From a virus, in the UHGV virus genome UHGV-0126695: 24,402 nucleotides of DNA; one strand, given 5' to 3'. Under the pieces are notes generated by a model. It searched no databases. It was not told the origin of the DNA and worked only from the letters and a program-made list of their open reading frames with translations. Made by a program: the position numbers and the translations under genes. Below are positions 9,849 through 24,402 of this stretch, one piece after another (positions within the stretch are counted from its first letter, which is position 1; each line of letters begins with the position of its first letter).

Positions 9849-10810
9849 CAGTTATTCTCCTGTTTAGGTTTAGCGGCGAGGAACTCTTCCCCGGTAATAC
9901 CCATGCTGCGGCACATCGCCAGTTCGGCGTCGGTCAGTGTCTGCGCGGGTTTATCCTTGCCCTGGCTGGGCTTGTCGTTGTTCACCAGCGGCTGTGCACC
10001 TTTGGTATACTCCGCAAACTGTTTGCGGCCTTCTTCCGTGCGGCAGGTGGCAAGGAACATGTCACGGTTTGCCGGGGCCACTTTTCCGGCTTCGATGGCC
10101 GCATCCACAAGCGCTTCTGCTTCCTTCTCTTCCAGTTGCTGAAGGCGTTGTTCTGCGGTTTCGGCACGGTTCAGTGCCAGATTGTGGGTTTCCACCGGTA
10201 CAAACTTCGTCAGGTCAGGTGTCTGTGCGCGGTTCAGCGCCACCTGTTCGTTCTCCTGAAGTTGTTTAATGGCGGCCACGGTATCGTCCACCGTGGCAGA
10301 TTCAGCCAGCCCAAGCAGGCCGGTGATTTGCACAGGTACTGTCATCGGGTTTTTCTCCGTATTCAGTGCAGGAAAGTCCAGGTTAGGTTTGTTGGTCAGC
10401 CCGACGCTGGACAGGCGCGTCACCACACCGTCTGCGTCAAAGAAAAACGCCGGGCTGTAATAGCGATAGCGGCGTTCGCTCAGCATCCACCGGGCGTACT
10501 CGCTCCAGACAACACGGCCTTCAATGGTGCCGCTGTCCGTCACGCGCAGTTCTTCCACCCAGCCATACGCCGGGGCTTCATCACCGCGTTGCCCTTTAAT
10601 TTCGGTGGCGTGTTCAATGTCCACCGGAATTTTGATGTCGGACGAGCGGGTGACCACCTCATGCGGATTGCGGTTAATCCACGTCCGGCCATCGCGCCCG
10701 GTGAACTCACCCGCAGGGACGAGTTCGAGCCATTCCGGCAGTTGAGCAGGTGTCAGCTCAGGGATGGGTTCTGGCAGGGAAAAACACAGCGCCAGCAGTT
10801 CCGGTTGCAT
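9848..10810 (-). CDS. I: Head maturation protease / scaffold protein (Mu I / gp32-like)
   Basis: 320-aa ORF, first gene after a non-coding regulatory region; coiled-coil-like C-terminal half (QRLQQLEEKEAEALVDAAIEAGK) consistent with a scaffold domain. GGAG RBS 7 nt upstream. Confidence 0.8.
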   Translation of the reverse strand: MQPELLALCFSLPEPIPELTPAQLPEWLELVPAGEFTGRDGRTWINRNPHEVVTRSSDIKIPVDIEHATEIKGQRGDEAPAYGWVEELRVTDSGTIEGRVVWSEYARWMLSERRYRYYSPAFFFDADGVVTRLSSVGLTNKPNLDFPALNTEKNPMTVPVQITGLLGLAESATVDDTVAAIKQLQENEQVALNRAQTPDLTKFVPVETHNLALNRAETAEQRLQQLEEKEAEALVDAAIEAGKVAPANRDMFLATCRTEEGRKQFAEYTKGAQPLVNNDKPSQGKDKPAQTLTDAELAMCRSMGITGEEFLAAKPKQENN

Positions 10811-10859
10811 GTCAGTCTCCGTCGTTTGGGGTTACCGACGGTCAGTATGCGGAAGGCAG

Positions 10860-10889
10860 AAAAAAAGCCGGATTTACCGGCTTCACTGA
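10860..10889 (-). terminator. Intrinsic terminator-like hairpin with T7 tract (minus strand), copy 1 of a duplicated element upstream of a late operon
   Basis: Minus strand reads TTCAGTGAAGCCGGTAAATCCGGCTTTTTTT: stem AAGCCGG/CCGGCTT, loop TAAAT, then seven T. Nearly identical to the element at 18571..18600. Confidence 0.6.
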
Positions 10890-10907
10890 AAACGGGGAAA
10901 TACCCCC

Positions 10908-10948
10908 TTCAAAACCCCTTCAAAAACGCCACAGCATCTTCAAAAACG
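10908..10948 (-). repeat. Three direct repeats of cttcaaaa(a)c (plus strand) in the F-I intergenic region
   Basis: Copies at 10908..10916, 10919..10929 and 10938..10948 (minus strand reads GTTTT(T)GAAG); spacing 11 and 19 bp. Confidence 0.5.
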
Positions 10949-11023
10949 TCAGAATGCACATTCACGCCATCAGAATAAAAAACGCGTTTCTGATGCGTTT
11001 CAGGGGGATTTACGGCGGGAGGG

Positions 11024-11788
11024 TTACTCACTGTCAAAACGGGCCTGTTTTGTCGCCAGCTGGCGCGCCAGCGCCTGCTCACGGTTTATGCCGGGATTGT
11101 AGTTCCAGCCCGGTTCAATCCCTTCCGGCACGTCTTCCTCTTCACCCGTGCGTTTATTCACCCAGCGGACGGTTCGGATTTCCGGTGCTTCGGTGTGAAT
11201 GCTGCCCTGTGCCGCCAGTTGCTCATACTCAAACCGGTTGACCTGACGAATGGTGCATTTGCAGCCCCAGCCATTAGGGGCGAAATGTGTCTGCCAGAAC
11301 GGGTGGTCTACCGGCAGACACAGACGCGCCCATTTCACATGCTCCGCCCGGTGCTCGCGGGATGGCCCCAGCTCGTAAATCAGATACGGCATGGCCCGCT
11401 TTGTCCGTTGAATGCGTTCCCACTGGCCCGCCGCGCGGGCGGTGCGCATGTTGGTATCGTAAATCGTGCGGAGGCGGCGGTCGCTGCCCAGCTGTACGGT
11501 TCGGGTTTCGCCCGTCAGCGGATCATCCATCTCCTGTACGCCCCACCATCCGCGTTTTATCAGCAGCGGTTGCAGCGCCTCCCGGAACTCGCTGAACGTC
11601 TGCCCGCTTTGCAGGGCGTCTTCCACAAGGGCTTTCACATCCGACAACAAATCCAGTTGCAGCATTTTTGCCACGGTGAAGCTGTTCCGGTGCTCTTCCC
11701 GCCACACATCCCGGTAATCAAAACCGGGGCGCAGCTTCTTCGCCTTCAGCCACGCCAGCGCCTCTTTCGGGGTGAGAGTTTCACGCAT
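11024..11788 (-). CDS. F: Head morphogenesis protein (Mu F / gp30-like)
   Basis: ORF downstream of the portal gene; likely start is ATG 11788 (MRETLTPKEALAWLK...), 4 nt after the portal stop. The track's longer ORF to 11845 would overlap the portal gene by 65 nt. Confidence 0.75.
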   Translation of the reverse strand: MRETLTPKEALAWLKAKKLRPGFDYRDVWREEHRNSFTVAKMLQLDLLSDVKALVEDALQSGQTFSEFREALQPLLIKRGWWGVQEMDDPLTGETRTVQLGSDRRLRTIYDTNMRTARAAGQWERIQRTKRAMPYLIYELGPSREHRAEHVKWARLCLPVDHPFWQTHFAPNGWGCKCTIRQVNRFEYEQLAAQGSIHTEAPEIRTVRWVNKRTGEEEDVPEGIEPGWNYNPGINREQALARQLATKQARFDSE

Positions 11789-13352
11789 GACCGGTGTCCC
11801 CCAGCGCACGCGCCTTAAAGCACACCTCCGCCAGTTGCAGGGCAAAGTCGTCCGCGTTCAGCGTTTCCTGAAGCTCAGGCAGGCGTTTCAGAAAGTCATC
11901 AAAACTGTCGCATTCCTGCGCCAGTGTCAGCACCGGGTTCGTGAACGCCTCGCCGGTTTTCTGCCAGTCACGCAGGGCATCATCCACCATCTGTGCCAGT
12001 TCATCGGGGTGTTCCCGGTTCAGGGCGACGCGCTCGCGGTTCATCGCCACATCACCTGACATTCCGGCAGACACCGGATGCAGAACATCAGCCCCGTCGT
12101 CCGGTTCAGCCAGGCCGAACCGGTCCCGCAGCTCCGATTCCTGAACCCGCATCCCCCGGTCAATCAGCGGCACCAGAGCATCTGTCAGCGCCTTCAGATC
12201 TTCCGCTTCACTGATACGCAGAACAACACGGGGGTAGTGTTCCTGTGGCCCGTAGTTGGCCTCGATGTAGGGCCGCACCAGATATTCATTCAGTGTGTTA
12301 GCCAGCTGCCGCGCGTCCCAGCGCACAATGTCCATGCGCACCTGATTGTGCACGTCCGCCTGTGAACGCGAACTGCCGTTATCCGTGGTCATGGTCTGCC
12401 CCAGCACAGCCTTACTGATTTGCGCATCACACCATTCCGCCATTTCACGGAACAGTGCGCCGCCGTTATTCCGGCTGGCGGTTTCCTTCATTTCCAGTTG
12501 CATGGACTGCGGAATGGCACACCCGGCATCCGAGGCAATGGAAGCAATCGCATCAATCAGCACGCGGATTTGCTCCTCCGTGGCGTTGGGGCCGTATTTC
12601 CCCACCGTGACCGGAATGCCGAATTTTTCCGCAAATGCCCACCAGTCGCGCACGGTAAAGGATTTCAGCATGTACATTACCGCCACCAGACGGGCCAGAC
12701 CGTTACGCAGCGGCAAACCGGATTTCAGGCGCGGCTGATGAACAATGAATTTTCCCGGTGTCAGCGGTACACCATCCACCGGTTCATCGTCTGTCAGCAG
12801 GCGGAACTGGCGCAGAGTGGGCTTTTCGGCTTTCAGAAAACGGGGATCAACCCACTCATAATCACGGGGCATCCAGTGGTTTTTGTGGGTATTCCAGAGA
12901 ATTTCGCAGACCGCCACGCCTTTTCCCAGCCCATCGAGCAAATCGAACATCAGCTCCGGGATTTGCGGGGCTTCCATCAGTGCACGGATGGCGTCCGCCA
13001 GTTGCACGTCAGCATCGTCATCACTGGCGGCCACCACCACCGGTTCAATACCCGCCACCGTCAGCTTGCGGGTGCGCAGCACCGAGGCGTAATGCAAATC
13101 ACGTTCTTCCATCTCTTCGGCAAGGATAAAAAAATCACGCGTGATGCCGTCGGCGGCATTGCGCAGAATGCCTGCCAGCCTGCCGGGATTCAGCCCGGAA
13201 GCAATGCTGATGCCCGGCGATGCCGGACGTACGCCAGCCTGACGCGGGCGGGCCTGTGCTTCATTGAGCGCCTCTTTTTTCAGGGTGTCGCCCTCGCCGG
13301 TTGTCGGGTTCAGCAAATGACGAACATCCCCGGTCTGTTGTTTCAGGTTCAC
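11781..13352 (-). CDS. H: Portal protein (Mu H / gp29-like, DUF935)
   Basis: 523-aa ORF immediately downstream of the large terminase gene with ATGA overlap. Confidence 0.85.
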   Translation of the reverse strand: MNLKQQTGDVRHLLNPTTGEGDTLKKEALNEAQARPRQAGVRPASPGISIASGLNPGRLAGILRNAADGITRDFFILAEEMEERDLHYASVLRTRKLTVAGIEPVVVAASDDDADVQLADAIRALMEAPQIPELMFDLLDGLGKGVAVCEILWNTHKNHWMPRDYEWVDPRFLKAEKPTLRQFRLLTDDEPVDGVPLTPGKFIVHQPRLKSGLPLRNGLARLVAVMYMLKSFTVRDWWAFAEKFGIPVTVGKYGPNATEEQIRVLIDAIASIASDAGCAIPQSMQLEMKETASRNNGGALFREMAEWCDAQISKAVLGQTMTTDNGSSRSQADVHNQVRMDIVRWDARQLANTLNEYLVRPYIEANYGPQEHYPRVVLRISEAEDLKALTDALVPLIDRGMRVQESELRDRFGLAEPDDGADVLHPVSAGMSGDVAMNRERVALNREHPDELAQMVDDALRDWQKTGEAFTNPVLTLAQECDSFDDFLKRLPELQETLNADDFALQLAEVCFKARALGDTGHA

Positions 13353-14884
13353 AGTAAACCTCCCTCATTTTTCAGGCCGCGTGTCAGCTTCATCTGGCGG
13401 CGCGTGTTGCCTTCGTCCGGTTTCGCCGGGCGGTTCAGGCGGTGCAGCTCGTAACGGTGGCAGTCATCCTTGCTGGCAAGGAAGCCCAGGAAAATGGCCA
13501 CAGCGGCGTCGCCGTGACGCTTGCGGCCATCACTACCTTTAGTACGGGCATCGTCAATGCCGGGAACACCACGCAGTAACTGAATGGCCCCGAGGTCATT
13601 GATCACGTCTTCATGCTTCGGAAGGATCAGCTCATCATCTTCAAACGCCGCACGGAAACGGGGCATGTTTTCGCGGTAGAACGCCACGGACAGCATCACC
13701 TGTTCCACCTCATCGCCGTACCGCTCCGCCGCCTGTTCTGCCAGATACTGACCATTCCCCCGTGCATCCATTTTGATACCGTCACGACGGGGCAGACGAT
13801 CGCAAAGCCAGAACAGCACCTGCTCCTGCTGTTTAAACGGCACATTGCCAAGCTCAACCAGGAACGGCACCTCGCGGGTGGTGTCATCGTTCACCGTCAC
13901 AGGGGCCAGTACGGTCAGGTCACCCGAACGCGCAAAGTCTTCCCCCAGACAGTGGCGCAGGTTCTTCGGGAGTTTTTCCAGCTCGGGGCGCACCACTGTT
14001 TCCAGCCATTCCCGGATATCTGCCCGGCGCTGGCTTTCCGTCAGTGCGTTAAATTCCGGTGTGCCGGTAAAGCGCAACACTTTCCCGGTGCCACGGGCCG
14101 CACGTTCACGCAGTGAGCGGGGGATATACGTGCCGCCGCCGTTTTTCGGGACGCAGTAGTATTCTTCCAGTGCGTCTTCGCGGGTGGCGGTATTTCTCAG
14201 CAGACCTTCTTTCCATTCCGCCTCGGCCTCCGGTGACCACACCATGCCGCGCACCTGACAGATACGCCGGTACAGCCCGTCATTGCAGGCATCATCCAGC
14301 GTGATGGTGTGAATACGGTAATCTTTTTTGCCTGCGCGGCTTTCCTGAATCAGCTGGTTAAACGGGTTGTCCACGCCGTCATGGGTGGAAATAAGGCGAA
14401 CCTTACCGCCCCACGTGGTCAGTGGTGTGACCGCCTTGAGTACCTCATCCAGTTGTTCATGAAACGCCGCTTCGTCGATGGTGACATTCCCCTGCATCCC
14501 GCGAATGTTGCCCGGATTACTGGACAGCGCCTTGACCTTAAATCCGCTGGCGAAGTACACGACGAACGTCAGAATGTCCTTGTCTTCGTCGGTGATCACT
14601 TCCTCGCGGATTTCTTCTGCTGCCGCATTAAACGCTTTCGCCCACATTGCCACGGCGTCGATAAATTCGCGGGCCATCTCCTTATTCGAACCGATATAAA
14701 AGTGATCGCTCCCGCCGTTTTCCTTCTTCAGTGATGCGGTCAGTGCCGCATCTGCCGCTTCTGCCCAGGTTAAACCGGTACGGCGGGATTTCTCGGCGAT
14801 TTTCAGTTTTGAATCATCCGCAACCCAGCGTTTCTGATACGGCAGCAGAACATCGGATTCACTGAACGTGTTCATCTGTGTCAT
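13349..14884 (-). CDS. Terminase large subunit (Mu gp28-like)
   Basis: 511-aa ORF between the small terminase-like gene and the portal gene; ATGA overlaps on both sides. Confidence 0.85.
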   Translation of the reverse strand: MTQMNTFSESDVLLPYQKRWVADDSKLKIAEKSRRTGLTWAEAADAALTASLKKENGGSDHFYIGSNKEMAREFIDAVAMWAKAFNAAAEEIREEVITDEDKDILTFVVYFASGFKVKALSSNPGNIRGMQGNVTIDEAAFHEQLDEVLKAVTPLTTWGGKVRLISTHDGVDNPFNQLIQESRAGKKDYRIHTITLDDACNDGLYRRICQVRGMVWSPEAEAEWKEGLLRNTATREDALEEYYCVPKNGGGTYIPRSLRERAARGTGKVLRFTGTPEFNALTESQRRADIREWLETVVRPELEKLPKNLRHCLGEDFARSGDLTVLAPVTVNDDTTREVPFLVELGNVPFKQQEQVLFWLCDRLPRRDGIKMDARGNGQYLAEQAAERYGDEVEQVMLSVAFYRENMPRFRAAFEDDELILPKHEDVINDLGAIQLLRGVPGIDDARTKGSDGRKRHGDAAVAIFLGFLASKDDCHRYELHRLNRPAKPDEGNTRRQMKLTRGLKNEGGLL

Positions 14885-15462
14885 GCGCTAATCCCCAGAA
14901 TGTCCCGTTTGATGGTGTCAGCCGCACCGCCTGACAGACCGCCCGTTCTGACCAGCTCTTCGGTTTTTTCTGCCATCTCCTGCGCAAACGCATCGCGGAT
15001 CGCTTTCTCGCGTTTATGGCTGGTCATGGCGGCCGCTTCCAGACGCTGGGCAACCAGCGCCAGTTGGCCCAGCGCCTTCGGTGCAACAGGTTTGTCATCT
15101 TCTGCCATCGACATGGACGTTTCAAAAGCCAGCGTTTTTACAAACTCCATCAGCAGCTTGCCGACGTCTGACGTCGGCGCGGAACCCAGCTTTGCCGCCC
15201 AGACTTCGGCCATTTCGCGGGAGGCGCGGATTTTGGCCCCGACTTTTTCCATGCGGATGGCATAGCGGTTTAAGCCCGTCCGGCTTAACTGCATCTCTTC
15301 CGGCAGGTTGTGTTCGTCAATCAGGGCATTGATGGCTTCGCGGATGTCTTCCTGTGTGTGCCGCTTTTCCCGCAGCATCTGATGCAACTGCTCCCGGATG
15401 CTGTCCGGGAGTAAATCCACTTTGGAAAGACGGCCACGGGTGGGGCGTTGTTCATTTTCCAT
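14881..15462 (-). CDS. Terminase small subunit-like protein (Mu gp27 / DUF3486-like)
   Basis: ORF directly upstream of the large terminase gene. The track start at 15483 is GTG; ATG at 15462 has a strong AGGAGG RBS. Confidence 0.7.
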   Translation of the reverse strand: MENEQRPTRGRLSKVDLLPDSIREQLHQMLREKRHTQEDIREAINALIDEHNLPEEMQLSRTGLNRYAIRMEKVGAKIRASREMAEVWAAKLGSAPTSDVGKLLMEFVKTLAFETSMSMAEDDKPVAPKALGQLALVAQRLEAAAMTSHKREKAIRDAFAQEMAEKTEELVRTGGLSGGAADTIKRDILGISA

Positions 15463-15610
15463 GTGTGCCCTCCTGTTGCTCACTACGCTGTGAACTTTCG
15501 TATGCAGATTTCAGCGCGCCACTCTGGATTTCACGCCATGTCAGGTTGTGCGCCAGACGGCGGAGTTCATCACGGGACGCTTTACTTATCGGATTCTTTT
15601 TACGGTTCAC
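15452..15610 (-). other. +1-frame open reading frame continuing the gp26-like gene past its stop (GTG at 15610 to TGA at 15452); frameshifted C-terminal part or small overlapping ORF
   Basis: Manual translation: (V)NRKKNPISKASRDELRRLAHNLTWREIQSGALKSAYESSQRSEQQEGTHGK. It fills an otherwise non-coding 137-nt gap in a tightly packed operon and ends overlapping the small terminase start. Confidence 0.4.
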
Positions 15611-15899
15611 GACGGCCCCCGTCTTCAGTTCCCGGTGTTTTCAGACCGGCGTATATTTCTTCGCGAACGGAGCGGATATCCTTACCCAGCAGCTTCCACA
15701 GCCGCGCACATGCCGGTGATGAACGCAGGGCACGTTTCATGGGGGTATCCGGTGCATCCGGGTTCCAGGGCTTTCCGGTCTGTTGTTCGTATGCACAGGC
15801 AATGGCGTTTTGCTCGATATCTGCCAGCACAAGGCAGTACGCCAGCTGCCGCACGACGGCCAGTTCTCCGCGACTTAACGGCTTCAGTTTTCGGGCCAT
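15600..15899 (-). CDS. Hypothetical protein (Mu gp26 position), possibly truncated by a frameshift at a GGGGG run
   Basis: 99-aa ORF MARKLKPLSRGELAVVRQLAY...; stop at 15600 is followed by a 137-nt stretch that is open in the +1 frame. The G5 run (plus-strand ccccc at 15616..15620) lies just upstream of the stop. Confidence 0.55.
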   Translation of the reverse strand: MARKLKPLSRGELAVVRQLAYCLVLADIEQNAIACAYEQQTGKPWNPDAPDTPMKRALRSSPACARLWKLLGKDIRSVREEIYAGLKTPGTEDGGRREP

Positions 15900-15901
15900 G
15901 C

Positions 15902-16195
15902 TCAGTCCCTCGCACGGGGTTTTTTAACGCCCGGAACGCTGGACAGGCCGTTTGCCACATCCTCGCCGCTGCCGGTGATTTCAGCCACGTAACAGCCGCC
16001 CACATCAGACAGACGAACCAGCCCCTGCTCGCGAAGCCATGCAAGCTGGGTGCGCACCACATCACGGGATACCTTATGACCGTAAGCCTGAAGGCAGGTC
16101 TGCAACACGGATTCATTCGCGCTGTCGCCACAGTCCAGCAGGGAACGCAGCAACACAAGACGACGGTCTTCAGTGAGGATCTCTTTCATCGCCAT
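15902..16195 (-). CDS. Small winged-helix-like hypothetical protein
   Basis: 97-aa ORF tightly packed between neighbours; sequence (VRTQLAWLREQGLVRLSD) suggests a winged-helix fold. Function not recognised. Confidence 0.55.
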   Translation of the reverse strand: MAMKEILTEDRRLVLLRSLLDCGDSANESVLQTCLQAYGHKVSRDVVRTQLAWLREQGLVRLSDVGGCYVAEITGSGEDVANGLSSVPGVKKPRARD

Positions 16196-16500
16196 TATTT
16201 TTTTTCCTTTAACTCGTTCTCTAATAACAAATTGCTGATGCGGGATACCTGGCGGATGGATGGCCCCAGCTCTTTGATTTCTCCCCGCAGGTTGCTGATA
16301 TCCAGTTGCAGGCGGTGGAACTCATCACGGTCGGGTAAATGGTGTACCTGGCTTTCCATCACCGACATGCGGGAACGGAGTGAATCAAACTCTTCGCGTT
16401 TGACGTAGGTTTTCGCCAGAATCAGCTGAAGCAGGTTTATTCCTGTCATCAGCAATGCCCACAGAATGGGCCAGTTGGCTCTGATCATTTCCCAGGACAC
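16195..16500 (-). CDS. Membrane-anchored coiled-coil protein (Mu gp25 / DUF2730-like)
   Basis: 101-aa ORF with an N-terminal hydrophobic segment (WPILWALLMTGINLLQLILA) followed by a charged helical region. Confidence 0.6.
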   Translation of the reverse strand: MSWEMIRANWPILWALLMTGINLLQLILAKTYVKREEFDSLRSRMSVMESQVHHLPDRDEFHRLQLDISNLRGEIKELGPSIRQVSRISNLLLENELKEKK

Positions 16501-16712
16501 GTTTTCCTCCTGCGTTCACGCATCTGCTGACAGTCAATACAGGTCACCACATCCGGCAGCGCCGCAAGGCGCTGTGCCGGAATAACGTTCCCGCAGTCAT
16601 TGCATAAGCCCCGGCTGCGGGGCGCTTCTTTTGTCCGTGTCTGCCAGGCTTTAACGACGCTCTGACGCTCGTTCAGAACCACTTCACTGATGCGGTCGAT
16701 TTCGTCGGTCAT
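16485..16712 (-). CDS. TraR/DksA-family C4 zinc-finger protein
   Basis: 75-aa ORF with CxxC-N17-CxxC (CNDCGNVIPAQRLAALPDVVTCIDC), characteristic of phage TraR-like proteins. ATGA overlap with the upstream gene. Confidence 0.8.
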   Translation of the reverse strand: MTDEIDRISEVVLNERQSVVKAWQTRTKEAPRSRGLCNDCGNVIPAQRLAALPDVVTCIDCQQMRERRRKTCPGK

Positions 16713-17317
16713 TTCGGCCCCGCAGACATTTTGTGACGGCTTGATTTGCTGTAACGGGCAAAGCCGTCAAGGGTTCTTACACCGAGATAGCCCAGCGCCG
16801 GGGTAAGCAACATCAGCGTGATATCCCAGTCCGGTGATGGCATATGCAGCGTGATACCTCTGGCACCGGCAATGGCTCCGGCAATCTGGCCGCAGGAGAG
16901 CAACAGCACATAGGCCAGACTGCTGTAACAGGAAAGGCGGGCCAGCAGCGGGCGTGTCTGGCGCACATAGCTGTCCGTGGCGTTGTCACCATTGCGGATG
17001 GTTTCCTGCTGTTCGTGGTGTGCGGCCTGCTGGTCAGCCAGCACCAGCTTCTGCCGTTCCACCTCCAGCTGTTGCAGCTGAACTTTCAGGGTTTCCATCT
17101 GCACCAGTTGCTCCGGTGACAGCATCACCAGTTTTTGTTCCAGAATGCGTTGCTGTTCAGCAACGGGCAGGCTTTCCCGGACGCTTTCCACCATACCGGC
17201 CACCGAGTCTGCGGCGGCAGATGTGCTGCCACCAAACCAGCGCCCGACGGAACGAATCAGCCCCGGCCCGGCTTTCAGCAGAACAGAGGCGATGCCTGAA
17301 AGGGTTAACGGATCCAT
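16709..17317 (-). CDS. Holin-like protein (coiled-coil N-terminus, hydrophobic C-terminus; 3TM-holin-like)
   Basis: 202-aa ORF in the lysis cassette; central coiled coil (QQRILEQKLVMLSPEQLVQMETLKVQLQQLEVERQKL) and C-terminal transmembrane segments. Confidence 0.55.
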   Translation of the reverse strand: MDPLTLSGIASVLLKAGPGLIRSVGRWFGGSTSAAADSVAGMVESVRESLPVAEQQRILEQKLVMLSPEQLVQMETLKVQLQQLEVERQKLVLADQQAAHHEQQETIRNGDNATDSYVRQTRPLLARLSCYSSLAYVLLLSCGQIAGAIAGARGITLHMPSPDWDITLMLLTPALGYLGVRTLDGFARYSKSSRHKMSAGPK

Positions 17318-17715
17318 GAATCCCCCTTATGAAAACGGCGCTGATGTTTATAAAGTGCCGCGCAAAAGATACTGCCCATCCAGAACGCCAGTTGATAAGG
17401 CTCCTTCAGATAAAGAATGCCGAATGTCAGCATGAAAAAACCAACGGCCCAGACCACCCATGACCACACGACAATTCGAAGGGAGGCGGCCCGGAAACGC
17501 CTTTTGGGTTGCAGGCGATAAGGTACGTTGCCCAGCTGGAAACTGTGAATCAGGCAGAGTGTCGCGCCGTATGCCAGCACCATGACCGCAAACGCCCGCC
17601 ATCCGGCAAAACAGCTCGCCAGAAAAAGTACTGCCGACAGCCCCAGAAACGACCACTGGCACAACATAAAGCGGGAGTAAATAACGCGAACAAAAAGACT
17701 ATTCATTCTGTGCAT
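17305..17715 (-). CDS. Integral membrane protein (about four predicted TM helices); holin/antiholin or exclusion candidate
   Basis: Likely start is ATG 17715 (MHRMNSLF...) with an AAGGA RBS. The track's longer N-terminal extension to 17886 is Thr/Pro/Arg/Trp-rich and overlaps the better 75-aa ORF, so it was trimmed. Confidence 0.55.
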   Translation of the reverse strand: MHRMNSLFVRVIYSRFMLCQWSFLGLSAVLFLASCFAGWRAFAVMVLAYGATLCLIHSFQLGNVPYRLQPKRRFRAASLRIVVWSWVVWAVGFFMLTFGILYLKEPYQLAFWMGSIFCAALYKHQRRFHKGDSWIR

Positions 17716-17926
17716 TGAGTTTTTCCTTGTACTTCTGGCACTGCCAGAAAATGTCCCGTGTATCCACGGAGTTCCAGCCACGCATGTAGTAGCTGGCGTG
17801 TGTGCCGTCATGGCCGGTATAGTCCAGCGGTTTCGGGGGCGGACCTCCGGCCATGCGGTGTAAAACCTCCTGACGCAGGCGGTCACGCCGCCCGGCTTTC
17901 AGGGAGGCGTCCCAGCCTTTGCCCAT
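17699..17926 (-). CDS. Small hypothetical protein immediately downstream of the endolysin
   Basis: 75-aa ORF starting 1 nt after the endolysin stop (TGAcATG); its composition looks protein-like, unlike the competing overlapping frame. Confidence 0.45.
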   Translation of the reverse strand: MGKGWDASLKAGRRDRLRQEVLHRMAGGPPPKPLDYTGHDGTHASYYMRGWNSVDTRDIFWQCQKYKEKLNAQNE

Positions 17927-17927
17927 G

Positions 17928-18515
17928 TCACCCCCGCGTGGTGGACGGCGCGTTGTCGATGATTTCCAGACAGGCGTCGGTCAGTTTTTCCATGCGGTTA
18001 AACCAGCCGTTCAGGTATTTGCCCTGGGCGGGTTTGGATTTGATGATGTCGGCATAAAAGCGGGAACGACGGACAATGCAGCGGGTCAGCAACCAGTCCG
18101 GGGTGGACAGGCTCACGGCCTTACGGGTACGCGGGCCGATGATGCCGTCAGCATCCACATCAGCGGCTTCCTGCAAAATTTTGATAGCTTTTTTAACGCC
18201 ATGCTGAACCGCCGCATCGAACACAAACATCGCCACGCCATCAGGCCACTGGTCACATCCGGCAGGCAGCCAGTAATCGCGCCAGTAAATCTGCGCAACC
18301 TGTTCGCGGGTTAAATCCTTAATGCGGGTGTCGGGTTTACCATCGCCGTTGACATCGGTTTTGCCGTCAATCACACCGTCGCGGCGGTCAGAAATGCCGT
18401 ATTTGGTTTCGCCGCCACGGTCTGTGGGGTCATTGACATAGACGCCTTCGATATCAGGACGCAGAATAAAATTCAGCGCATGTTCAAAAGCCGGAGAGAA
18501 TTTTTGATTTTCCAT
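17928..18515 (-). CDS. Endolysin, glycoside hydrolase family 108-like N-terminal domain with C-terminal peptidoglycan-binding domain
   Basis: 195-aa ORF; N-terminus EGVYVNDPTDRGGETKYGIS matches the GH108 lysozyme signature region, and the C-terminal region resembles a PG_binding_3 domain. AGGTG RBS. Confidence 0.85.
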   Translation of the reverse strand: MENQKFSPAFEHALNFILRPDIEGVYVNDPTDRGGETKYGISDRRDGVIDGKTDVNGDGKPDTRIKDLTREQVAQIYWRDYWLPAGCDQWPDGVAMFVFDAAVQHGVKKAIKILQEAADVDADGIIGPRTRKAVSLSTPDWLLTRCIVRRSRFYADIIKSKPAQGKYLNGWFNRMEKLTDACLEIIDNAPSTTRG

Positions 18516-18615
18516 AAAAGCACCTGTGAAGCAGATTTAAACGTGGTCTGCTTCATGGTGCCGGAGGCATAAAAAAAGCCGGATTTACCGGCTTCATTGA
18601 ATTAAGGGAAGATAA
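18516..18615 (-). promoter_or_regulatory. Non-coding region upstream of the endolysin gene; candidate late promoter (P_lys-like)
   Basis: 100 bp between the cargo gene stop and the lys ATG. Contains the hairpin/T7 element and a perfect 8-bp inverted repeat gaagcaga-N11-tctgcttc (18528..18554) just upstream of the lys RBS. Confidence 0.45.
18571..18600 (-). terminator. Intrinsic terminator-like hairpin with T7 tract (minus strand), copy 2 of the duplicated element, upstream of the endolysin gene
   Basis: Minus strand reads TTCAATGAAGCCGGTAAATCCGGCTTTTTTT; 27 of 27 core positions match the 10860..10889 copy except one C/T difference. Confidence 0.6.
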
Positions 18616-19095
18616 CTACTCATCTCCTTTGATGGAGCAATCTATTACCATATCGTTACCCATCTTGAGAAATTTGGTTTGCATGAGAAAACCCTGTATC
18701 ACGTCAGTTAACCCATACCCTTCAACTTTTGTAGCTGAAACTACCATGTCAATAATTCGTTTCTGCTGCTTCTCTGTTAGTTCACCAATTGCTGACTCCG
18801 CAACTCGCGAGCATGCCACAAAAGAAGACAACACACCTGAAGGATTGTTTTCATAATCCTTCACTGTCGTCGTTGAGCTGACGACTTTATTGTTGATCGT
18901 AAATACCCCGAATTTGCTGTGAGCAGTTTCAGTTCCACCGTTCTTAATAGAATCGCCTCCCTTAAGAGGCTTCCAGCTATTTAGTGCAATGAGATCTTTT
19001 TCTGTCAGACGTTTTTTGATGACATCTTCAGCTGGCAACTTTGCCGCATTAGCGCAAAATACGCTCAGTAAAAGTATAAGAGGAAAGTATTTCAT
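18616..19095 (-). CDS. Secreted hypothetical protein (N-terminal signal peptide), cargo/moron gene
   Basis: 159-aa ORF with a typical signal peptide (MKYFPLILLLSVFCANA|AK). AT-rich by eye compared with the flanking late genes. Start overlaps the Mor stop (ATGA); followed by a terminator-like hairpin. Confidence 0.7.
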   Translation of the reverse strand: MKYFPLILLLSVFCANAAKLPAEDVIKKRLTEKDLIALNSWKPLKGGDSIKNGGTETAHSKFGVFTINNKVVSSTTTVKDYENNPSGVLSSFVACSRVAESAIGELTEKQQKRIIDMVVSATKVEGYGLTDVIQGFLMQTKFLKMGNDMVIDCSIKGDE

Positions 19096-19502
19096 GACTC
19101 ATCCTTAAACAGTTGCATTTGATATTTTCCACGCTCCAGCCTTCGCATTCTTTTGATAGCTTGATATACCGTTTTGTATGTCACTTTGTAACGCTGCACC
19201 AGTTCCGCTACGTTTTTCCCATCAAAATCACGCCAGATGCGCATGTCTCTGATAAGATTTTCCAGTATTTTCCCTTTAGGAACATATACCTGAATCCCAC
19301 CGATATGATTACAAATCGCCACTACCAACTCAAGGGAATGAACCGGGTTAACCCCAAGCCTTATCAGTTCCTGTCGCAACAGAGCATTCAGCTCTGAAAG
19401 TAGCGCCGGGTAAACATATTTTTCCTGATAATCGTGAAGATATTCCAGAACGCTGTCGTCCCGGAAGTCTTCGAATAAATCCTGCTCTTTCATTTGTTTC
19501 AT
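19092..19502 (-). CDS. mor: Mor/C-family transcriptional activator (Mor-like)
   Basis: 136-aa ORF; long stretches (YPALLSELNALLRQELIRLGVNPVHSLELVVAICNHIGGIQVYVPKG...IRDMRIWRDFDGKNVAELVQRYKVTYKTVYQAIKRMRRL) closely parallel the phage Mu Mor sequence as I recall it. Sits directly after GemA with ATGA overlap, as in Mu. Confidence 0.85.
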   Translation of the reverse strand: MKQMKEQDLFEDFRDDSVLEYLHDYQEKYVYPALLSELNALLRQELIRLGVNPVHSLELVVAICNHIGGIQVYVPKGKILENLIRDMRIWRDFDGKNVAELVQRYKVTYKTVYQAIKRMRRLERGKYQMQLFKDES

Positions 19503-20050
19503 ACAGCAATTCTCCCGCTGTTTCGTGCGCGGGCATACGCACTGGTCAGTGCATCATATCCGCGCAGCTCCCGCCCGGTTTCGCTCACAGGTAAAGGCAC
19601 ACCATGTCGGGCAAAGGCTTCACGGATGCAGCGCATATGCCACTGTTTGAGCGTTTCGAGCACAACCTGCAACGATTCCCCATGACACCAGGCCAGCGTG
19701 GAAACACCCTGACCACCATTACGTCTGGCCGTCAGGCGCTCAACGTATTTGTCCAGCGCAGCGTCGCTGATATCGGAAACGAAACCATCAAGGAACATCT
19801 GCTGCCAGATTTTGTAAATCTTCTCGCGTGGTGTGACATGCCCCTTAAAGCGACGGCGGGGATGTTTTTTCTGCTTCTTAAAACCGCGCTCTTTCATGGC
19901 ATCGAGCACTTGTTCCAGTTGTGCAACGGACAGCTCGCGGCAACTGGTTTTGCCCGTGCACTGCACCAGAAAAGCTCGGTAAGTGTCATCGTCGAGTTGC
20001 AACTCCCGACGGGCAACATGAATTAATTTAATCAGGGATGTGCGGCTCAT
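19499..20050 (-). CDS. gemA: GemA-like regulatory protein (Mu gp16 / DUF1018-like)
   Basis: ORF immediately upstream of mor; likely start ATG 20050 (MSRTSLIKLIHVARRELQLDDDTYRAF...). The track's longer version starts at 20095. Confidence 0.7.
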   Translation of the reverse strand: MSRTSLIKLIHVARRELQLDDDTYRAFLVQCTGKTSCRELSVAQLEQVLDAMKERGFKKQKKHPRRRFKGHVTPREKIYKIWQQMFLDGFVSDISDAALDKYVERLTARRNGGQGVSTLAWCHGESLQVVLETLKQWHMRCIREAFARHGVPLPVSETGRELRGYDALTSAYARARNSGRIAV

Positions 20051-20417
20051 TATGTCCCATCTCCTTAATGCAGTGTTTTTCGACCCATGCCACACGAGCA
20101 GAATTCAGGTGACATCTGCCAAGTCTGCATTCCTCATGATAGTGCGCTCTACTTTCATTGAAAGGTAATAATTCATCCAACTCGTTCGCGATAAAATCTG
20201 CACGTAATTGTTCTAATATATCTTCGGTATCCACTCCGATTTCGTCAAAATAACGACAAGCATTTGCACATAATCCTGAATATTGAACAAATATTTCACC
20301 CTCTGTTTCTGGTGCACCATTTTTTAACCACTGGTTATAGGCAACATAAAAATCATAAAGATGTTTTCTGGTGCTGGCGGATGTGGATTTAATTTCATTT
20401 TTCTCTGTGTTATTCAT
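20028..20417 (-). CDS. Hypothetical acidic Cys/His-containing protein (AT-rich accessory gene)
   Basis: Likely start ATG 20417 (MNNTEKNEIK...) with a GAGG RBS; C-terminal Cys/His cluster (HYHEECRLGRCHLNSARVAWVEKHC). The region is visibly AT-rich. Confidence 0.5.
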   Translation of the reverse strand: MNNTEKNEIKSTSASTRKHLYDFYVAYNQWLKNGAPETEGEIFVQYSGLCANACRYFDEIGVDTEDILEQLRADFIANELDELLPFNESRAHYHEECRLGRCHLNSARVAWVEKHCIKEMGHNEPHIPD

Positions 20418-20592
20418 TTCGTAATACCTCTTCGCAATAAAAGATTTCACTGGGATAACGTTTTTGTATGCGCTCCATCACCTGCATACATGCCTGCTCG
20501 GTGGGCCAGATTTTTTCCGTTACGGGTATGGCATCACAGGCATCATTCCCACAGGTGCCAACCAGCAGGACAAAGCCAATTGACTTAACCAT
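20410..20592 (-). CDS. Small Cys-rich protein with N-terminal hydrophobic signal-like segment (possible secreted protein or lipoprotein)
   Basis: 60-aa ORF MVKSIGFVLLVGTCGNDACDAIPVTEK...; it is the internal start of track ORF 20410..20688, chosen because the longer form would overlap the upstream gene. Below the 60-aa reliability range, so confidence is modest. Confidence 0.4.
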   Translation of the reverse strand: MVKSIGFVLLVGTCGNDACDAIPVTEKIWPTEQACMQVMERIQKRYPSEIFYCEEVLRNE

Positions 20593-21124
20593 GCTCGCTG
20601 ACTTCCTGTGTTGCCGCCGGAACCGGTGAATAATCAAGAATGAGATAGCGCAGGACGTGGTCGGTGATATTCCAGCCACTGGAACCACAAATAAAACGTC
20701 CCAGCCGGATATCGATATACGCCATCACAAAACGAGGCATTCCCTGTTTGCACATCTCGTCATCCACTTCAGCAACGATGTAAACCGACTCGCAGGTCAG
20801 TACGCCTGTCGCAAATTCTTTTGCCAGTGCCGGAATGGCATTGCCTTCCAGCCAGGGCAAAGAGCGGCGGAACGCGCACCATTGAGCATCATCAACAGCG
20901 GGGGGTTCCGTTGCGTTTCGTCTTACTGGCGGCGTCTGACGAGGGCGCGGAACGTCATAAAATCCGTTGCTTTCAGTGAGAACTCCGGCATCAACCGCAT
21001 CACGCAGGAAATACACCATTGAGGAAGGTGGCATATTCATTTTTTCAGCCAGAACGCCACAGGTCAGACGCCCGTAAGTCCGTAATAATGTGCTGACACC
21101 GTTCAGAACTTTTGCATCAACCAT
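20585..21124 (-). CDS. Hypothetical early-region protein with possible N-terminal winged-helix domain
   Basis: 179-aa ORF with an AAGGA RBS, in the early operon downstream of gam. Confidence 0.55.
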   Translation of the reverse strand: MVDAKVLNGVSTLLRTYGRLTCGVLAEKMNMPPSSMVYFLRDAVDAGVLTESNGFYDVPRPRQTPPVRRNATEPPAVDDAQWCAFRRSLPWLEGNAIPALAKEFATGVLTCESVYIVAEVDDEMCKQGMPRFVMAYIDIRLGRFICGSSGWNITDHVLRYLILDYSPVPAATQEVSEHG

Positions 21125-21223
21125 TTTTTTATTCCTTAGTAATCTGTTTCAGGCGCGAGCAATCCCCTGACGCATCGCGCCATAATTAAAAGAAAGTGAA
21201 TTAATTAAATATTCGTAGTGGTA

Positions 21224-21748
21224 TTAAATACCGGCTTCCTGTTCAAACGGAATAATAGAAAAATCTTCAATGCCCGATTTAACTGTAATTCCGGCAACAC
21301 CTGCGACCGCTTTCGGTTCCAGTAAAATCGCTTCCTTGTTGATTTCCTGTTTCGTGCGAATAAAGCGTTGCAGGCCAAGACGCTCCAGTGTTTCCATCAC
21401 CGCATCCACACCGCGAATACTTACCGATGGTGGGCGCTGACGCCATGACACATCGCCGGTTACCAGGTTCGCCGTCTTCACCTTGCCGCCGTTCGTCAGT
21501 TCGTCACGGTTCGCTTCACACCATCCCTGAACGCCTTTTGAAAGGGTTTCAATGCTGGTTTTAAGCGGCGTAATCTGTGAGGCGTATTTCTCAGTAATTT
21601 CAGCGATAGCGTCATTCATTTCCGTTTCAAGTCGTGCCGCTTCGCGTTGCAGGTCACCAATCCGGCGAATATCACACACCACGGCATCGCGGGATTGTGG
21701 AACATAAGCTGCTGCGGCGTTCTTGATTCGTTTTGCTGGTTTAGCCAT
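21224..21748 (-). CDS. gam: Host-nuclease inhibitor protein Gam (Mu Gam, Ku-like DNA end-binding protein)
   Basis: 174-aa ORF MAKPAKRIKNAAAAYVPQSRDAV...GITVKSGIEDFSIIPFEQEAGI, matching Mu Gam in length and nearly throughout in sequence as I recall it. Confidence 0.9.
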   Translation of the reverse strand: MAKPAKRIKNAAAAYVPQSRDAVVCDIRRIGDLQREAARLETEMNDAIAEITEKYASQITPLKTSIETLSKGVQGWCEANRDELTNGGKVKTANLVTGDVSWRQRPPSVSIRGVDAVMETLERLGLQRFIRTKQEINKEAILLEPKAVAGVAGITVKSGIEDFSIIPFEQEAGI

Positions 21749-21768
21749 ATAAATAAAGCTCCTGTTAA

Positions 21769-22056
21769 TTAATATTCGCTGTATACAATGCTGGATACAG
21801 CACGATTGCTTAATTCCATCTTTTGGGCAATGACATGAATAGCCAGCCCTTCTTTATAAAGTTCACGACATAAATATTTGTCGTGCTCACTGACCTGGTA
21901 TACACACAACGATATTCCGTGCCTTCTGGCATGTGCCTGTAGGGCGGTTGGGGCAACGTTCAGTTTTTTCGCCATTTCTTCAACGGTCAGTTTCCCGACA
22001 CTGGCTTCGATAAATTCCCGGTCTTCGCGTGACCAGCGTTTACGCTTACACATCAT
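21769..22056 (-). CDS. Hypothetical DNA-binding (HTH) protein
   Basis: Track ORF starts at a GTG (22068); the first ATG is at 22056 (MMCKRKRWSREDREFIEASVGKLTVEEMAKKLNV...). HTH-like segments; function unknown. Confidence 0.55.
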   Translation of the reverse strand: MMCKRKRWSREDREFIEASVGKLTVEEMAKKLNVAPTALQAHARRHGISLCVYQVSEHDKYLCRELYKEGLAIHVIAQKMELSNRAVSSIVYSEY

Positions 22057-22068
22057 TCCGGTCACCAC

Positions 22069-22488
22069 TCAGTACAACAGGGGGTCACGCAGTGATGCCG
22101 GAATATGCCGCAGCGATAACTGAACCGCTTTCAGGGCAAGGGAAGAATACGTCCCCTGCGTCCAGCCTTTCGCCATTTGCCGGTAATCGCGCCAGATGTT
22201 CTGCCACTGCTCCCGTGCGTCCGGGTCTGACGCGCTGATGTATTCGCGGTCCATGACGTATTCCCATAAATCCTCGTTAAACGCACCGCCAAATGCGATG
22301 GCGTTGGAGATGTTTTCGCCACAATAACGTGCACAAATGCTGTAATGGTCAAATGCAATCAGATAAGTAGTTTCACCATGCTCATAAACTTTGCGGGCGC
22401 AAATAAATTCGCGTAAGTCTCCGCTATTGTTATTACGCATTTTGATTCGAATTAATGCCTGGATTTCGTTTCTGATTTTGGCGTTCAT
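22069..22488 (-). CDS. Hypothetical early-region protein
   Basis: Track ORF 22069..22512; ATG 22488 (MNAKIRNEIQ...) has an AAAGGAA RBS and avoids overlap with the upstream gene. The alternative start at 22512 cannot be excluded. Confidence 0.5.
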   Translation of the reverse strand: MNAKIRNEIQALIRIKMRNNNSGDLREFICARKVYEHGETTYLIAFDHYSICARYCGENISNAIAFGGAFNEDLWEYVMDREYISASDPDAREQWQNIWRDYRQMAKGWTQGTYSSLALKAVQLSLRHIPASLRDPLLY

Positions 22489-22502
22489 TGTCAGCGTTCC
22501 TT

Positions 22503-22766
22503 TCAGTGACATGTTCCTTCAACTGTCGTTTCTGTGACACTGCCGCCCGCAATGACGCCATCATTTTTCAGTATTTCAATGGCCTCATGGGCTGACTCGC
22601 GAACGATATCCCGGCTTTTTTCCAGAACCAGTAACGCTATCGCACCAGCAAGCGTGTACTCATCACCATCCAGTTCTGCGCTGTGGTCCACGTTAACATT
22701 GGTGCGTAAATCCTGCCCTTTAACTTCAGATGTCACATTTTTGATTTCGATAATGACTTTTGCCAT
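22503..22766 (-). CDS. Hypothetical early-region protein
   Basis: 87-aa ORF with a strong AAGGAG RBS 8 nt upstream of ATG 22766. Confidence 0.55.
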   Translation of the reverse strand: MAKVIIEIKNVTSEVKGQDLRTNVNVDHSAELDGDEYTLAGAIALLVLEKSRDIVRESAHEAIEILKNDGVIAGGSVTETTVEGTCH

Positions 22767-22779
22767 TTTGTTTCTCCTT

Positions 22780-23004
22780 TTAGTCCAGAATAACGCCTAC
22801 TTTTACTGTTGTGCCTTTTACCTGTTTAAAGAAAACCGCACTGCACCACGGGCAACATGTAAAGGTGTCCCATACTTCTTTCTCTGGTGAACATTGCGTC
22901 ATGATTTGCTCTTTGCATTTAGGGCAATTGAACGCAGTCAGTGCGACATTGTTGCTTTGTGCTCGTTTAACCCATTCGATATATTTCTCAGCACTAATAC
23001 ACAT
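22780..23004 (-). CDS. Small zinc-ribbon-like protein (two CxxC pairs)
   Basis: Likely start ATG 23004 (MCISAEKYIEW...) just after the Kil-like stop; contains CPKC and CPWC motifs. AT-rich. Confidence 0.5.
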   Translation of the reverse strand: MCISAEKYIEWVKRAQSNNVALTAFNCPKCKEQIMTQCSPEKEVWDTFTCCPWCSAVFFKQVKGTTVKVGVILD

Positions 23005-23006
23005 AG

Positions 23007-23234
23007 TTATCTCCAGATAATCTGACAACCATTAAGGCGTGCCGTCCATACTGAACGGGCAACCCCTGATTTATGCTCCATAATCCTGACAGCGTTTCTG
23101 ACCAGCTCCGGTGGTGGGCAGGTGATTTCAAGTACCGGGCGGGCTACGCCCAGCCAGGATTCGTTGACGTGGCTGCCGCGCTCCTGTAACCAGGTCTTTA
23201 CTTCCGTCGCCATTTTGATATTCCGTGACATCAT
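23007..23234 (-). CDS. Kil-like small early protein (assigned by position after B)
   Basis: 75-aa ORF starting at ATG 23234 ([12 protein letters not shown]...) with an AAGGAG RBS, immediately downstream of the MuB stop, the position of kil in Mu. The sequence assignment itself is not confirmed. Confidence 0.5.
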
Positions 23235-23247
23235 GATTTCGCTCTCC

Positions 23248-24186
23248 TTACGTGCGCAGCAGGGTTGAAATATCAACATCCAGGTCTAATTCACGGAAAG
23301 CCTGACGCAGATAATCTTCATTAACACGTTCACCTTTGCCGTGGGCGGTCATGGCCGCAAGGCGCAGCGAGTGGTTCAGGATGCGAAGCGCACCTGGTTT
23401 TTGTGCAATCTGCTGTAATAATTCCCGCTCGTTTTCGCCGGTAATTTGCCAGGCATCCGCAATGGCTTTTACATCATCAATTTTGGTTTTATTAATTGCC
23501 GTCCGTTTGGCAATACGGGAAAACAGGCGGGCAAATTCAACCGTTCTGTTACCACCGGTCATGTTTGAATAAACACGGTGATTCCCCATCAGAACAAGGC
23601 CAATACGGGCGGATTCCTGTAACAGGCGGAGTTCTTCCAGAACCTCAGCGCCAAGATGATCAGCTTCATCGATAATGACCAACCCCTGCGTACCTTCAAG
23701 GCGACGTCTCAAAGCGCGGGAGAGTGGCCCCTTGCGGCGCGGTGCGTCATTCATCCCCAGTTCATAAGCCAGTTCCGTCAGGCATTCCAGAACACTGGCA
23801 CAGGATGGGGTAATGGTGATCATCCAGACATTGTTATTGGTGCGACGAAATTCGCGGGCCGCTTCAGTTTTTCCCACACCTGGATTACCGCAGATAACAG
23901 AAATACTTTCAGTCAGGCTGGCAAAACGCATACTCGTCCAGATTTGGCGTGCTGTTCTGGTTTCCACAAAACGTGGTGGTTCTGGCAGCTCTGCGGCACG
24001 GTGATAGTTCTCCAGCCAGCGTTCCAGCGTCTGCGCAACACGTTCATTGTCGCCGTTGTACTTGTTATTCACGAATGCGCTTAACGTTCCTGCGGCCACG
24101 CCAGACTCGCGTGCAATTTGTGCATAAGTCGCTTTTTCACTTTCTACAAGCGTGCGCAGTCCTGCGCGAATATCGGAAATATTCAT
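23248..24186 (-). CDS. B: DNA transposition protein B (MuB AAA+ ATPase, target DNA activator)
   Basis: 312-aa ORF with a Walker A motif ([14 protein letters not shown]) and near end-to-end resemblance to Mu B as I recall it ([15 protein letters not shown]...PRFVET...[19 protein letters not shown]...). ACGAGG RBS. Confidence 0.95.
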
Positions 24187-24224
24187 CTGAATAACCTCGT
24201 AATTAAATTTTGTTTAAACGTTAA

Positions 24225-24402
24225 TTAAATGGCTTTTTTACGTCTGTTCTGTTCCAGAATATCCAGCGAATGATTCAGATATTCATCACGATCAGTTTCA
24301 TATTCATCATCGGGTTCCTGGTATTTCACCTGCACCGTGTTACCGGAAGGCCGGAAAATACCAACAACCCTTGATTCTGGCGCTGCTGGTTCGGCTATCT
24401 GC
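24225..24402 (-). CDS. A: Transposase MuA, C-terminal end only (gene continues beyond window end)
   Basis: Manual minus-strand translation of the window end: QIAEPAAPESRVVGIFRPSGNTVQVKYQEPDDEYETDRDEYLNHSLDILEQNRRKKAI, then stop (TAA at 24227..24225). The ...QNRRKKAI end matches the MuA C-terminus. Absent from the ORF track because it has no start inside the window. Confidence 0.9.
   Translation of the reverse strand, partial: QIAEPAAPESRVVGIFRPSGNTVQVKYQEPDDEYETDRDEYLNHSLDILEQNRRKKAI

Follow-up and report, generated by a model that had tools for sequence, protein, structure and literature searches.

The stretch of UHGV virus genome UHGV-0126695 analyzed here (the window, 24,402 nt) is part of a Mu-like prophage. 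All of its genes, and the dyads, hairpins and hexamers given below by window coordinates, lie on the minus strand. The locus of interest comprises gemA, a gene of the Mor/C family of activators, an open reading frame (ORF) of 159 amino acids (aa) and the endolysin gene lys, together with a short dyad element that is found before lys and again before the protease gene I. The Mor-to-C cascade of phage Mu is a textbook case of phage timing, in which Mor acts on the middle promoter Pm to give C and C acts on the late promoters Plys, P_I, P_P and Pmom, each protein being strictly specific for its own promoters. Mu Mor is inactive on the late promoters and Mu C is inactive on Pm (PMC4287176), and the type of operator present at lys and I is therefore informative. 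An earlier reading of this locus (the original prediction) had found no C gene ahead of lys and had offered three explanations, namely direct activation of the late promoters by the Mor-like protein, a C homolog outside the window, or a regulatory-defective prophage. The features described below point to the first of these.

A single Mor/C-family gene between gemA and lys

The gp16-family gene gemA (20050-19499; Pfam GemA, 1.1e-32) precedes the activator gene, and its stop codon overlaps the mor start. Its ATG at 20050 is taken from the translation, and the product has 183 aa in near-identical copies of the prophage. The Mor/C-family gene (19502-19092) encodes a protein of 136 aa that matches Pfam PF08765 (1.6e-29; 102.5 bits against a cut-off of 24.9) over profile positions 3-107 of 107 and the "late transcriptional activator" family phrog_532 (1.3e-39). 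Members of the Mor/C family are small proteins of about 100-150 aa with an invariant G, G, Y, P and G in the linker and a C-terminal helix-turn-helix (PMC2582627). The corresponding residues G68, G69, Y73, P75 and G77 are present in an alignment of the window protein with Mu Mor and Mu C, and residues 94-121 give weak HTH_28 and HTH_23 matches. The protein is 59% identical to Mu Mor versus 31% to Mu C, and judged by this closer sequence and by its position directly after gemA the gene is the ortholog of Mu Mor and not of Mu C.

Searches for a second family member in the window returned the same gene each time. The tblastn queries Mu Mor, Mu C and the window protein each give one significant place, 19095-19502 (E values of 6e-50, 2e-14 and 6e-91, respectively), and there is no second place in the window, the next best match having an E value of at least 0.13. 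The Mor/C profile, run with filters off against all six-frame stop-to-stop segments of at least 30 aa from the window, gives one match (1.7e-71) followed by a next-best E value of 1.6, and the iterated form of the profile, made from 66 distinct family members, again finds only this match in the window. These results exclude the 159-aa ORF and the other small ORFs as hidden members of the Mor/C family. The statement in the original prediction that the window contains no second Mor/C ORF is borne out by these searches, and its reading of the gene order as gemA, a Mor-like gene, a secreted-protein gene and lys agrees with the Pfam matches and the gene map; its reservation that one of the small unannotated proteins might prove to belong to the family falls away, as none of them matches a Mor/C profile.

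Sites of the C type, TTAT-N5-6-ATAA (consensus from PMC12867686), are absent before every late operon in the window, including those of lys and I. Two matches to the consensus are present in the early region, at 23007-23020 and 23071-23083, 64 bp apart at the kil/gp6 junction, compared with 0.21 expected, and 2 of 100 shuffles reach this number; these matches are possibly due to chance.

The 159-aa ORF that follows mor (19095-18616; phrog_38744) carries an N-terminal signal peptide, has a GC content of 41% and is the last gene of the early operon, with a 100-bp gap between it and lys. It has no Pfam match and no match to the Mor/C hidden Markov model. Its homologs form only 6 clusters, all at least 74% identical, and its AlphaFold model has a mean predicted local distance difference test (pLDDT) score of 53, with residues 1-70 below 50. 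Small secreted or membrane proteins recur in this slot, a variable hot spot between mor and the terminator/promoter element; in relatives (L008, L010, L018, L035, L036, L043, L074, L076 and L102) it contains unrelated signal-peptide proteins of 165-177 aa, multi-transmembrane proteins of 103-107 aa, or nothing.

Mor-type dyads before lys and gene I

The Mor site of Mu is an imperfect dyad of 16 bp, with arms of 5 bp on either side of a GC-rich 6-bp spacer; it lies at -51 to -36, centered at -43.5, and is followed by a -10 hexamer with no -35 (PMC4287176, PMC4390567). The Pm sequence AGTAA-AGCCGG-TTAAT fits this published site, with TATCCT located 22 nt downstream, and agrees with the 71-bp promoter feature in the Mu record; the assignment of -51 to -36 to AGTAAAGCCGGTTAAT is a reconstruction from the text of the same two papers. 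The gap before lys in the window reads TTCAATGAAGCCGGTAAATCCGGCTTTTTTTATGCCTCCGGCACCATGAAG, and Mu Pm reads ACAGTAAAGCCGGTTAATCCGGCTTTTTTTACGTCCTCAATATCCTGTG. Within the gap before lys, at 18598-18583, is a Mor-type 16-bp dyad, AATGAAGCCGGTAAAT (AATGA-AGCCGG-TAAAT), that aligns with AGTAAAGCCGGTTAAT and is predicted to serve the lys-operon promoter (Pm-like promoter 1) as its activator site. The dyad is overlapped, as in Mu, by a hairpin, GAAGCCGG-TAAAT-CCGGCTTT, at 18595-18575 that is followed by T7 and is predicted to be an intrinsic terminator for the early operon (terminator scan; predicted free energy -12.6 kcal/mol, z-score -3.4), the hairpin and T-run together spanning 18595-18566, and the equivalent hairpin of Mu is annotated as a terminator inside Pm in the Mu record. 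A -10-like hexamer, CACCAT (18560-18555), lies 22 nt after the dyad, and there is no -35 hexamer. The gene lys itself (18515-17928) encodes an endolysin with GH108 and PG_binding_3 domains (Pfam, 1e-23 and 2.8e-17) and is predicted to be the first gene of a Mor-dependent lysis/head operon.

The second dyad, AGTGAAGCCGGTAAAT (AGTGA-AGCCGG-TAAAT), is located at 10887-10872 in the gap before gene I (10810-9848), which encodes a Mu-like prohead protease of 320 aa (PF10123, Mu-like_Pro_N, according to the records of this product in relatives), and is the predicted activator site of the promoter for the gene I head/tail operon (Pm-like promoter 2). It is overlapped by a hairpin at 10884-10864 and followed, again after 22 nt, by the -10-like hexamer CATACT (10849-10844). 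The distance between dyad and hexamer at both sites is that found between the Mor site and TATCCT in Mu Pm, and both copies align base for base with Mu Pm. They share an exact 19-bp core, AAGCCGGTAAATCCGGCTT, that occurs exactly twice in the window, both times on the coding strand and upstream of lys and of I (the second copy at 10883-10865), with 0 occurrences expected by chance; the half-site pattern also occurs twice, compared with 0.06 expected. An unbiased repeat search places the pair first among the direct repeats of the window, as the longest of them (52 nt, 85% identity). A sigma-70 scan of both dyad regions gives no -35/-10 promoter. The two sites occupy positions matching those of the Mu late promoters Plys and P_I, and the -10 region before I resembles that of the C-dependent Mu P_I (CCGCATACTGAC vs CCGCAAACTGAC), and CATACT appears homologous to the CAAACT region of P_I, whereas the upstream activator site is of the Mor type and not of the C type. 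Promoter positions in the window relative to +1 are given by alignment and are unmapped.

Mor/C-family ORFs and Mor-type dyads were counted in 77 viral-contig loci and 7 genome loci encoding relatives of the Mor-like protein; a scan of species-representative genomes gave only the 7 genome loci, and the comparison drew instead on the scan of viral contigs. Exactly one dyad is present in each of the 24 loci that have Mor together with C, located 3 bp after mor and corresponding to Pm. The single-activator loci whose Mor ortholog is 56-100% identical to the window protein and that extend at least 9 kb downstream, the window included, have two dyads in 32 of 33 cases, though many are near-duplicates and the 33 represent roughly seven independent lineages. 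The first dyad in these loci follows mor or the slot gene, and the second is found before the protease gene, about 8 kb downstream of the first. The -10-like hexamer keeps A at position 2 and T at position 6 in all lineages if a spacing of 22 or 23 nt is allowed in some relatives. Pasteurella phage AFS-2018a, a distant single-Mor relative (28% identity), has a dyad of its own, TTTAAAGCACTTTAAA, before the lysis gene and before the protease gene.

Two arrangements around mor differ from that of the window. Loci L009 (14570-15019) and L034 (8579-9082) have no slot gene and encode a longer Mor of 149-151 aa with a proline- and arginine-rich tail after QPDLF; lys directly follows mor, and the Pm-like dyad begins 2-3 bp after the mor stop, exactly as in Mu. 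Locus L076 contains at 7587-7766, between mor and the Pm-like element, a 60-aa fragment corresponding to only the C-terminal helix-turn-helix half of Mor/C and 35% identical to the window protein, which looks like the remnant of a second Mor/C-family gene.

An alternative interpretation of the repeated element is that it is an intrinsic terminator reused at two operon ends, with late transcription relying on a non-homologous activator encoded nearby, or on early transcripts that are extended by read-through or antitermination. In favor of this, each copy folds into an 8-bp GC-rich hairpin with T7 after it, the -10-like hexamers are weak, and the late region encodes other candidates for binding to DNA or RNA polymerase, including a TraR/DksA-type C4 zinc-finger protein of 75 aa (16712-16485) within the lysis/packaging operon and a gp26-like winged-helix protein (16195-15902; 61% identical to Mu gp26). 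However, these two genes lie downstream of the first element and would be unable to start that operon, and Mu also has a gp26 homolog and still needs C. The identity between the two copies reaches beyond the stem on both sides, and in the L036/L040/L053 and L074-L076 lineages the copy upstream of I keeps its 16-bp dyad even though the 3′ hairpin arm and the T-run have been lost, which argues for selection on the dyad and not on the terminator. The 5′ half-site lies outside the stem, yet it is conserved and covaries between copies, the variable half-site positions changing together in both copies within a lineage (TGA or TAA; TAAAT or TTAAT). The combinations observed are TGA with TAAAT in the clade of the window, TGA with TTAAT in L036 and Brenneria, and TAA with TTAAT in L074 and Mu. 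Reuse of a terminator is accordingly an unlikely account of the repeat. A residue of the recognition helix (Q versus K or A) was considered as a correlate of the difference between TAAAT and TTAAT and was rejected, as the correlation is broken by L035.

Gene order and the predicted late program

The early region of the window includes B (24186-23248) and gam (21748-21224), with kil and small early genes between them, and a gp11-like gene (21124-20585) ahead of gemA. Immediately downstream of lys is a homolog of Mu gp18 (17926-17699; 70% identity, E value 3e-37) for whose product PF26867 is recorded in relatives, and a Mu "middle" gene therefore sits in the lysis operon here. It is followed by other lysis-region genes, of which the membrane ORF next to the gp18 homolog has no detectable relation to Mu gp19. 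The TraR/DksA-type gene has no counterpart among the Mu genes listed at 7500-12500 of the Mu genome, and its product may be a modulator of RNA polymerase. Homologs of gp25 and gp27 are also present in the late region, and the order after the gp27 homolog is terminase, portal, F, a 213-bp gap, protease I, the major head protein T and the tail genes, which extend down to P (1363-293). The major head gene is followed at 8945-8865 by a pair of adjacent hairpins, GCAGTTAAAAGG...CCTTTTAACTGC and CTGCCTTTTAAAAGGCAG, that may attenuate or partly terminate transcription within the long operon predicted for I.

The window is a sharp mosaic of composition and ancestry, with one part at approximately 1-18500 and the other at 18500-24402, and the lowest GC content is that of mor and the 159-aa ORF (about 42%). 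The early region has a GC content of 47-51% and, from B through gam, shares about 85% DNA identity with Mu, D108 and SfMu. In the late region the GC content is 56-60% and no deposited phage is matched by megablast; the same holds for positions 17600-20500, and the whole window was matched solely via the B-gam early region.

The single Mor/C-family gene, the two operator-like sites and their conservation and covariation in relatives make it probable that one Mor-type activator switches on the late genes directly, in a two-step program of early and late expression instead of the three steps of Mu. Both the sequence and the comparative evidence (two dyads, and the relatives that share them) support this first explanation of the original prediction. 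The binding, activation, transcription start sites and timing that make up the following scheme are predicted from sequence. Early transcription from the left end would proceed through mor and the 159-aa ORF and probably end at the hairpin and T7 (18595-18566). The Mor-like protein would bind the overlapping dyad, which by comparison with Mu Pm would be centered near -43.5, and would bring sigma-70 RNA polymerase to a promoter lacking a -35 hexamer, in the manner of Mor at Pm. The first promoter would then serve an operon of lys, the gp18-like gene, the lysis genes, terminase, portal and F, and transcription would start again at the second site (10887-10844) to cover protease I and the major head gene and probably also the tail genes, which may be reached by read-through from the I promoter; mom may depend on another input. 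With the gp18 homolog inside the lys operon, the middle and lys operons of Mu would be effectively fused, and a middle operon and C would thus not be needed.

Several observations weigh against direct activation of the late genes by the Mor-like protein. The predicted -10 hexamers are poor (CACCAT has 3/6), and the Mor site in Mu Pm itself overlaps a terminator hairpin, such that a terminator common to both could account for some of the similarity. The relatives compared reduce to few independent lineages, although the split between one and two dyads is still clean, and the prophage ends, considered below, come from relatives and not from the genome of the window itself. Relaxed half-site patterns give only chance-level matches in the window for a third or fourth Mor-type site equivalent to P_P and Pmom, and the region upstream of com in near-identical copies lacks a Mor-type dyad as well as any clear dyad of the C type; the tail and mom genes therefore need read-through or another input. 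A partial match inside gene N near 1850, GTGAAGCC, was rejected as a Mor-type site because its right half-site is absent. The com upstream region at the right end of the prophage (approximately 16800-16970 in L003-L006) retains com-mom and a GATC cluster like that of the Dam/OxyR-controlled Pmom of Mu.

The ends of the Mor-like protein resemble clamp-binding motifs. The N-terminus reads ...KEQDLF (19470-19502) and the C-terminus ...YQMQLFKDES (19092-19130), and EQDLF and QMQLF resemble the motifs as defined in PMC12867686. MuC depends on a pair of clamp-binding motifs, QHDLF and QPDLF; in Mu Mor only the N-terminal DLF is present, and the protein ends in QPSLL (PMC12867686). Most single-activator orthologs end in QxxLF (QLDLF, QPDLF, QMPLF), which is nearer to the clamp-binding consensus QL[SD]LF than the QPSLL of Mu Mor. 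Use of the sliding clamp by the Mor-like activator is a speculation suggested by these motifs.

Loss of C from a prophage that is now regulatory-defective and no longer expresses its late genes, the last of the three explanations in the original prediction, is disfavored and appears highly improbable. The truncated Mor/C-like remnant between mor and lys in L076 implies that loss of a second gene occurs in this group, and one Escherichia coli copy (UMNF18) has frameshifted and deleted late genes. In the window, by contrast, all structural ORFs are full length, with lengths as in relatives, the operator-like sites are conserved across lineages, and Mu-like phages lacking C are viable (PMC4553209, PMC3447690). 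Copies of the prophage adjoin different host genes in different assemblies, and in the assembly collection a protein identical to that of the 159-aa ORF occurs in 375 blocks and one identical to B in 2176. These different chromosomal neighbors and the hundreds to thousands of blocks suggest a recently transposing phage rather than a decaying relic.

As the window stops short of both prophage ends, the regions beyond it were read from contigs encoding exactly the same proteins. Loci L003-L006 carry the identical P protein, with L005 and L004 being 99.7% and 99.2% identical, respectively, to window positions 1-11354, and extend through the baseplate and tail-fiber genes and com-mom into host genes with no Mor/C match by precomputed Pfam or by our own profile. 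Loci L013-L017, which carry the identical 159-aa protein, extend back through B, A, ner and the repressor gene c into host DNA and have only the one Mor. A C homolog outside the window, elsewhere in the prophage or supplied in trans by another Mu-like prophage of the host, could be entertained on account of the missing ends, and yet it is the least probable of the explanations considered, given the single Mor in copies that reach host DNA on both sides, the lack of C-type sites before any late operon, and the failure of Mu C to activate a Mor-type promoter (PMC4287176).

Comparison with Mu and with phages lacking C

The Mu record gives the order gemA, mor, Pm, gp18, gp19, gp20, C, Plys and lys. 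The order gemA, mor, C, lys stated for Mu in the original prediction is thus simplified in omitting gp18, gp19 and gp20 between mor and C. The prophage resembles Mu in the gemA/mor stop-start overlap, the Mor ortholog, the Pm-type element composed of hairpin, 16-bp dyad and -10 hexamer, the gp18, gp25, gp26 and gp27 homologs, and the com-mom genes at the right end of near-identical copies. Unlike Mu, it has no C gene and no separate middle operon, its Pm-type promoter is doubled, with one copy each ahead of lys and I, positions that have C-type sites in Mu, its lys encodes a GH108 enzyme instead of the signal-anchor-release (SAR) endolysin of Mu, and it has an extra secreted-protein gene after mor. 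A second family member upstream of lys, which in the three-tier cascade of Mu is C, encoded in a Mor-dependent middle operon, is present neither in the window nor in its near-identical copies. Against an early region that is about 85% Mu-like, the duplicated Mor-type promoters offer a natural comparison for what an extra regulatory tier contributes, and if the direct activation of late genes by Mor holds true, the question of what the middle phase is for becomes testable by comparing single- and two-activator phages.

A more far-reaching and tentative possibility is that the Mor ortholog took over the whole job of C via Mor-type operators at lys and I, as a natural short-circuit of the Mu cascade, that QMQLF may couple late transcription to replication as in MuC, and that the three-tier cascade of Mu could be a lineage-specific elaboration produced by recombination and not the ancestral state. 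Relatives with only a Mor-type gene or only a C-type gene do exist.

The single activator noted in the original prediction is present and is less unusual than was implied there. In the phage collection, 54 records match the window protein at 68 places by tblastn, with two genes in 14 records (Mu, D108, SfMu, PhiR68_1, Mu_3F6 and the Yersinia Mu-like phages) and one gene in 40 (including BcepMu, phiE255 and martha 12B12), and a single Mor/C gene is the common state among these records. In reviews of transposable phages, "the late regulator Mor/C" is counted as a single core gene (PMC8705779), and in B3, BcepMu, phiE255, KS10 and Vibrio phage martha 12B12 a single Mor/C protein is regarded as the late regulator (PMC8705779, PMC2628397). 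These phages are like the window in having one Mor/C-family gene adjoining gemA and differ in that their proteins are 28-41% identical to that of the window and the genome layouts are not the same. Matches to the prophage family of the window occur in 46 of 5426 complete E. coli genomes, with coverage of 80% or more in 24, and the practical value of its description is modest, consisting of better annotation of this family and two short promoter fragments.

The closest arrangement among described phages is that of SuMu from Haemophilus parasuis and of 3927AP2 and phiMhaMu2 from Mannheimia haemolytica, in which lys directly follows mor and C is lacking (PMC4553209). Such phages do propagate, SuMu infecting its host and 3927AP2 being inducible (PMC3447690, PMC4553209). 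The window shares with them a single mor followed by a lys of the GH108/PG_binding_3 type, having one Mor/C gene, then the 159-aa ORF and the GH108 lys with no intervening activator. It differs from them in that they have Pasteurellaceae hosts and distant proteins, and in that 3927AP2 is without a typical com-mom module whereas copies of the window prophage have com-mom. The papers on these phages propose no promoter or operator and leave open which protein activates the late genes (PMC4553209), and the duplicated Mor-type sites suggest an answer to that question. No description of Mor-type sites at the late promoters of Mu-like phages lacking C was found in the literature searched, subscription-only papers (e.g., Morgan et al. 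2002) lying outside it. Mu-like phages that lack C and have mor adjoining lys are already published, and the novelty here is modest, consisting of the E. coli-type lineage and the apparent rewiring of its late operators from C to Mor.

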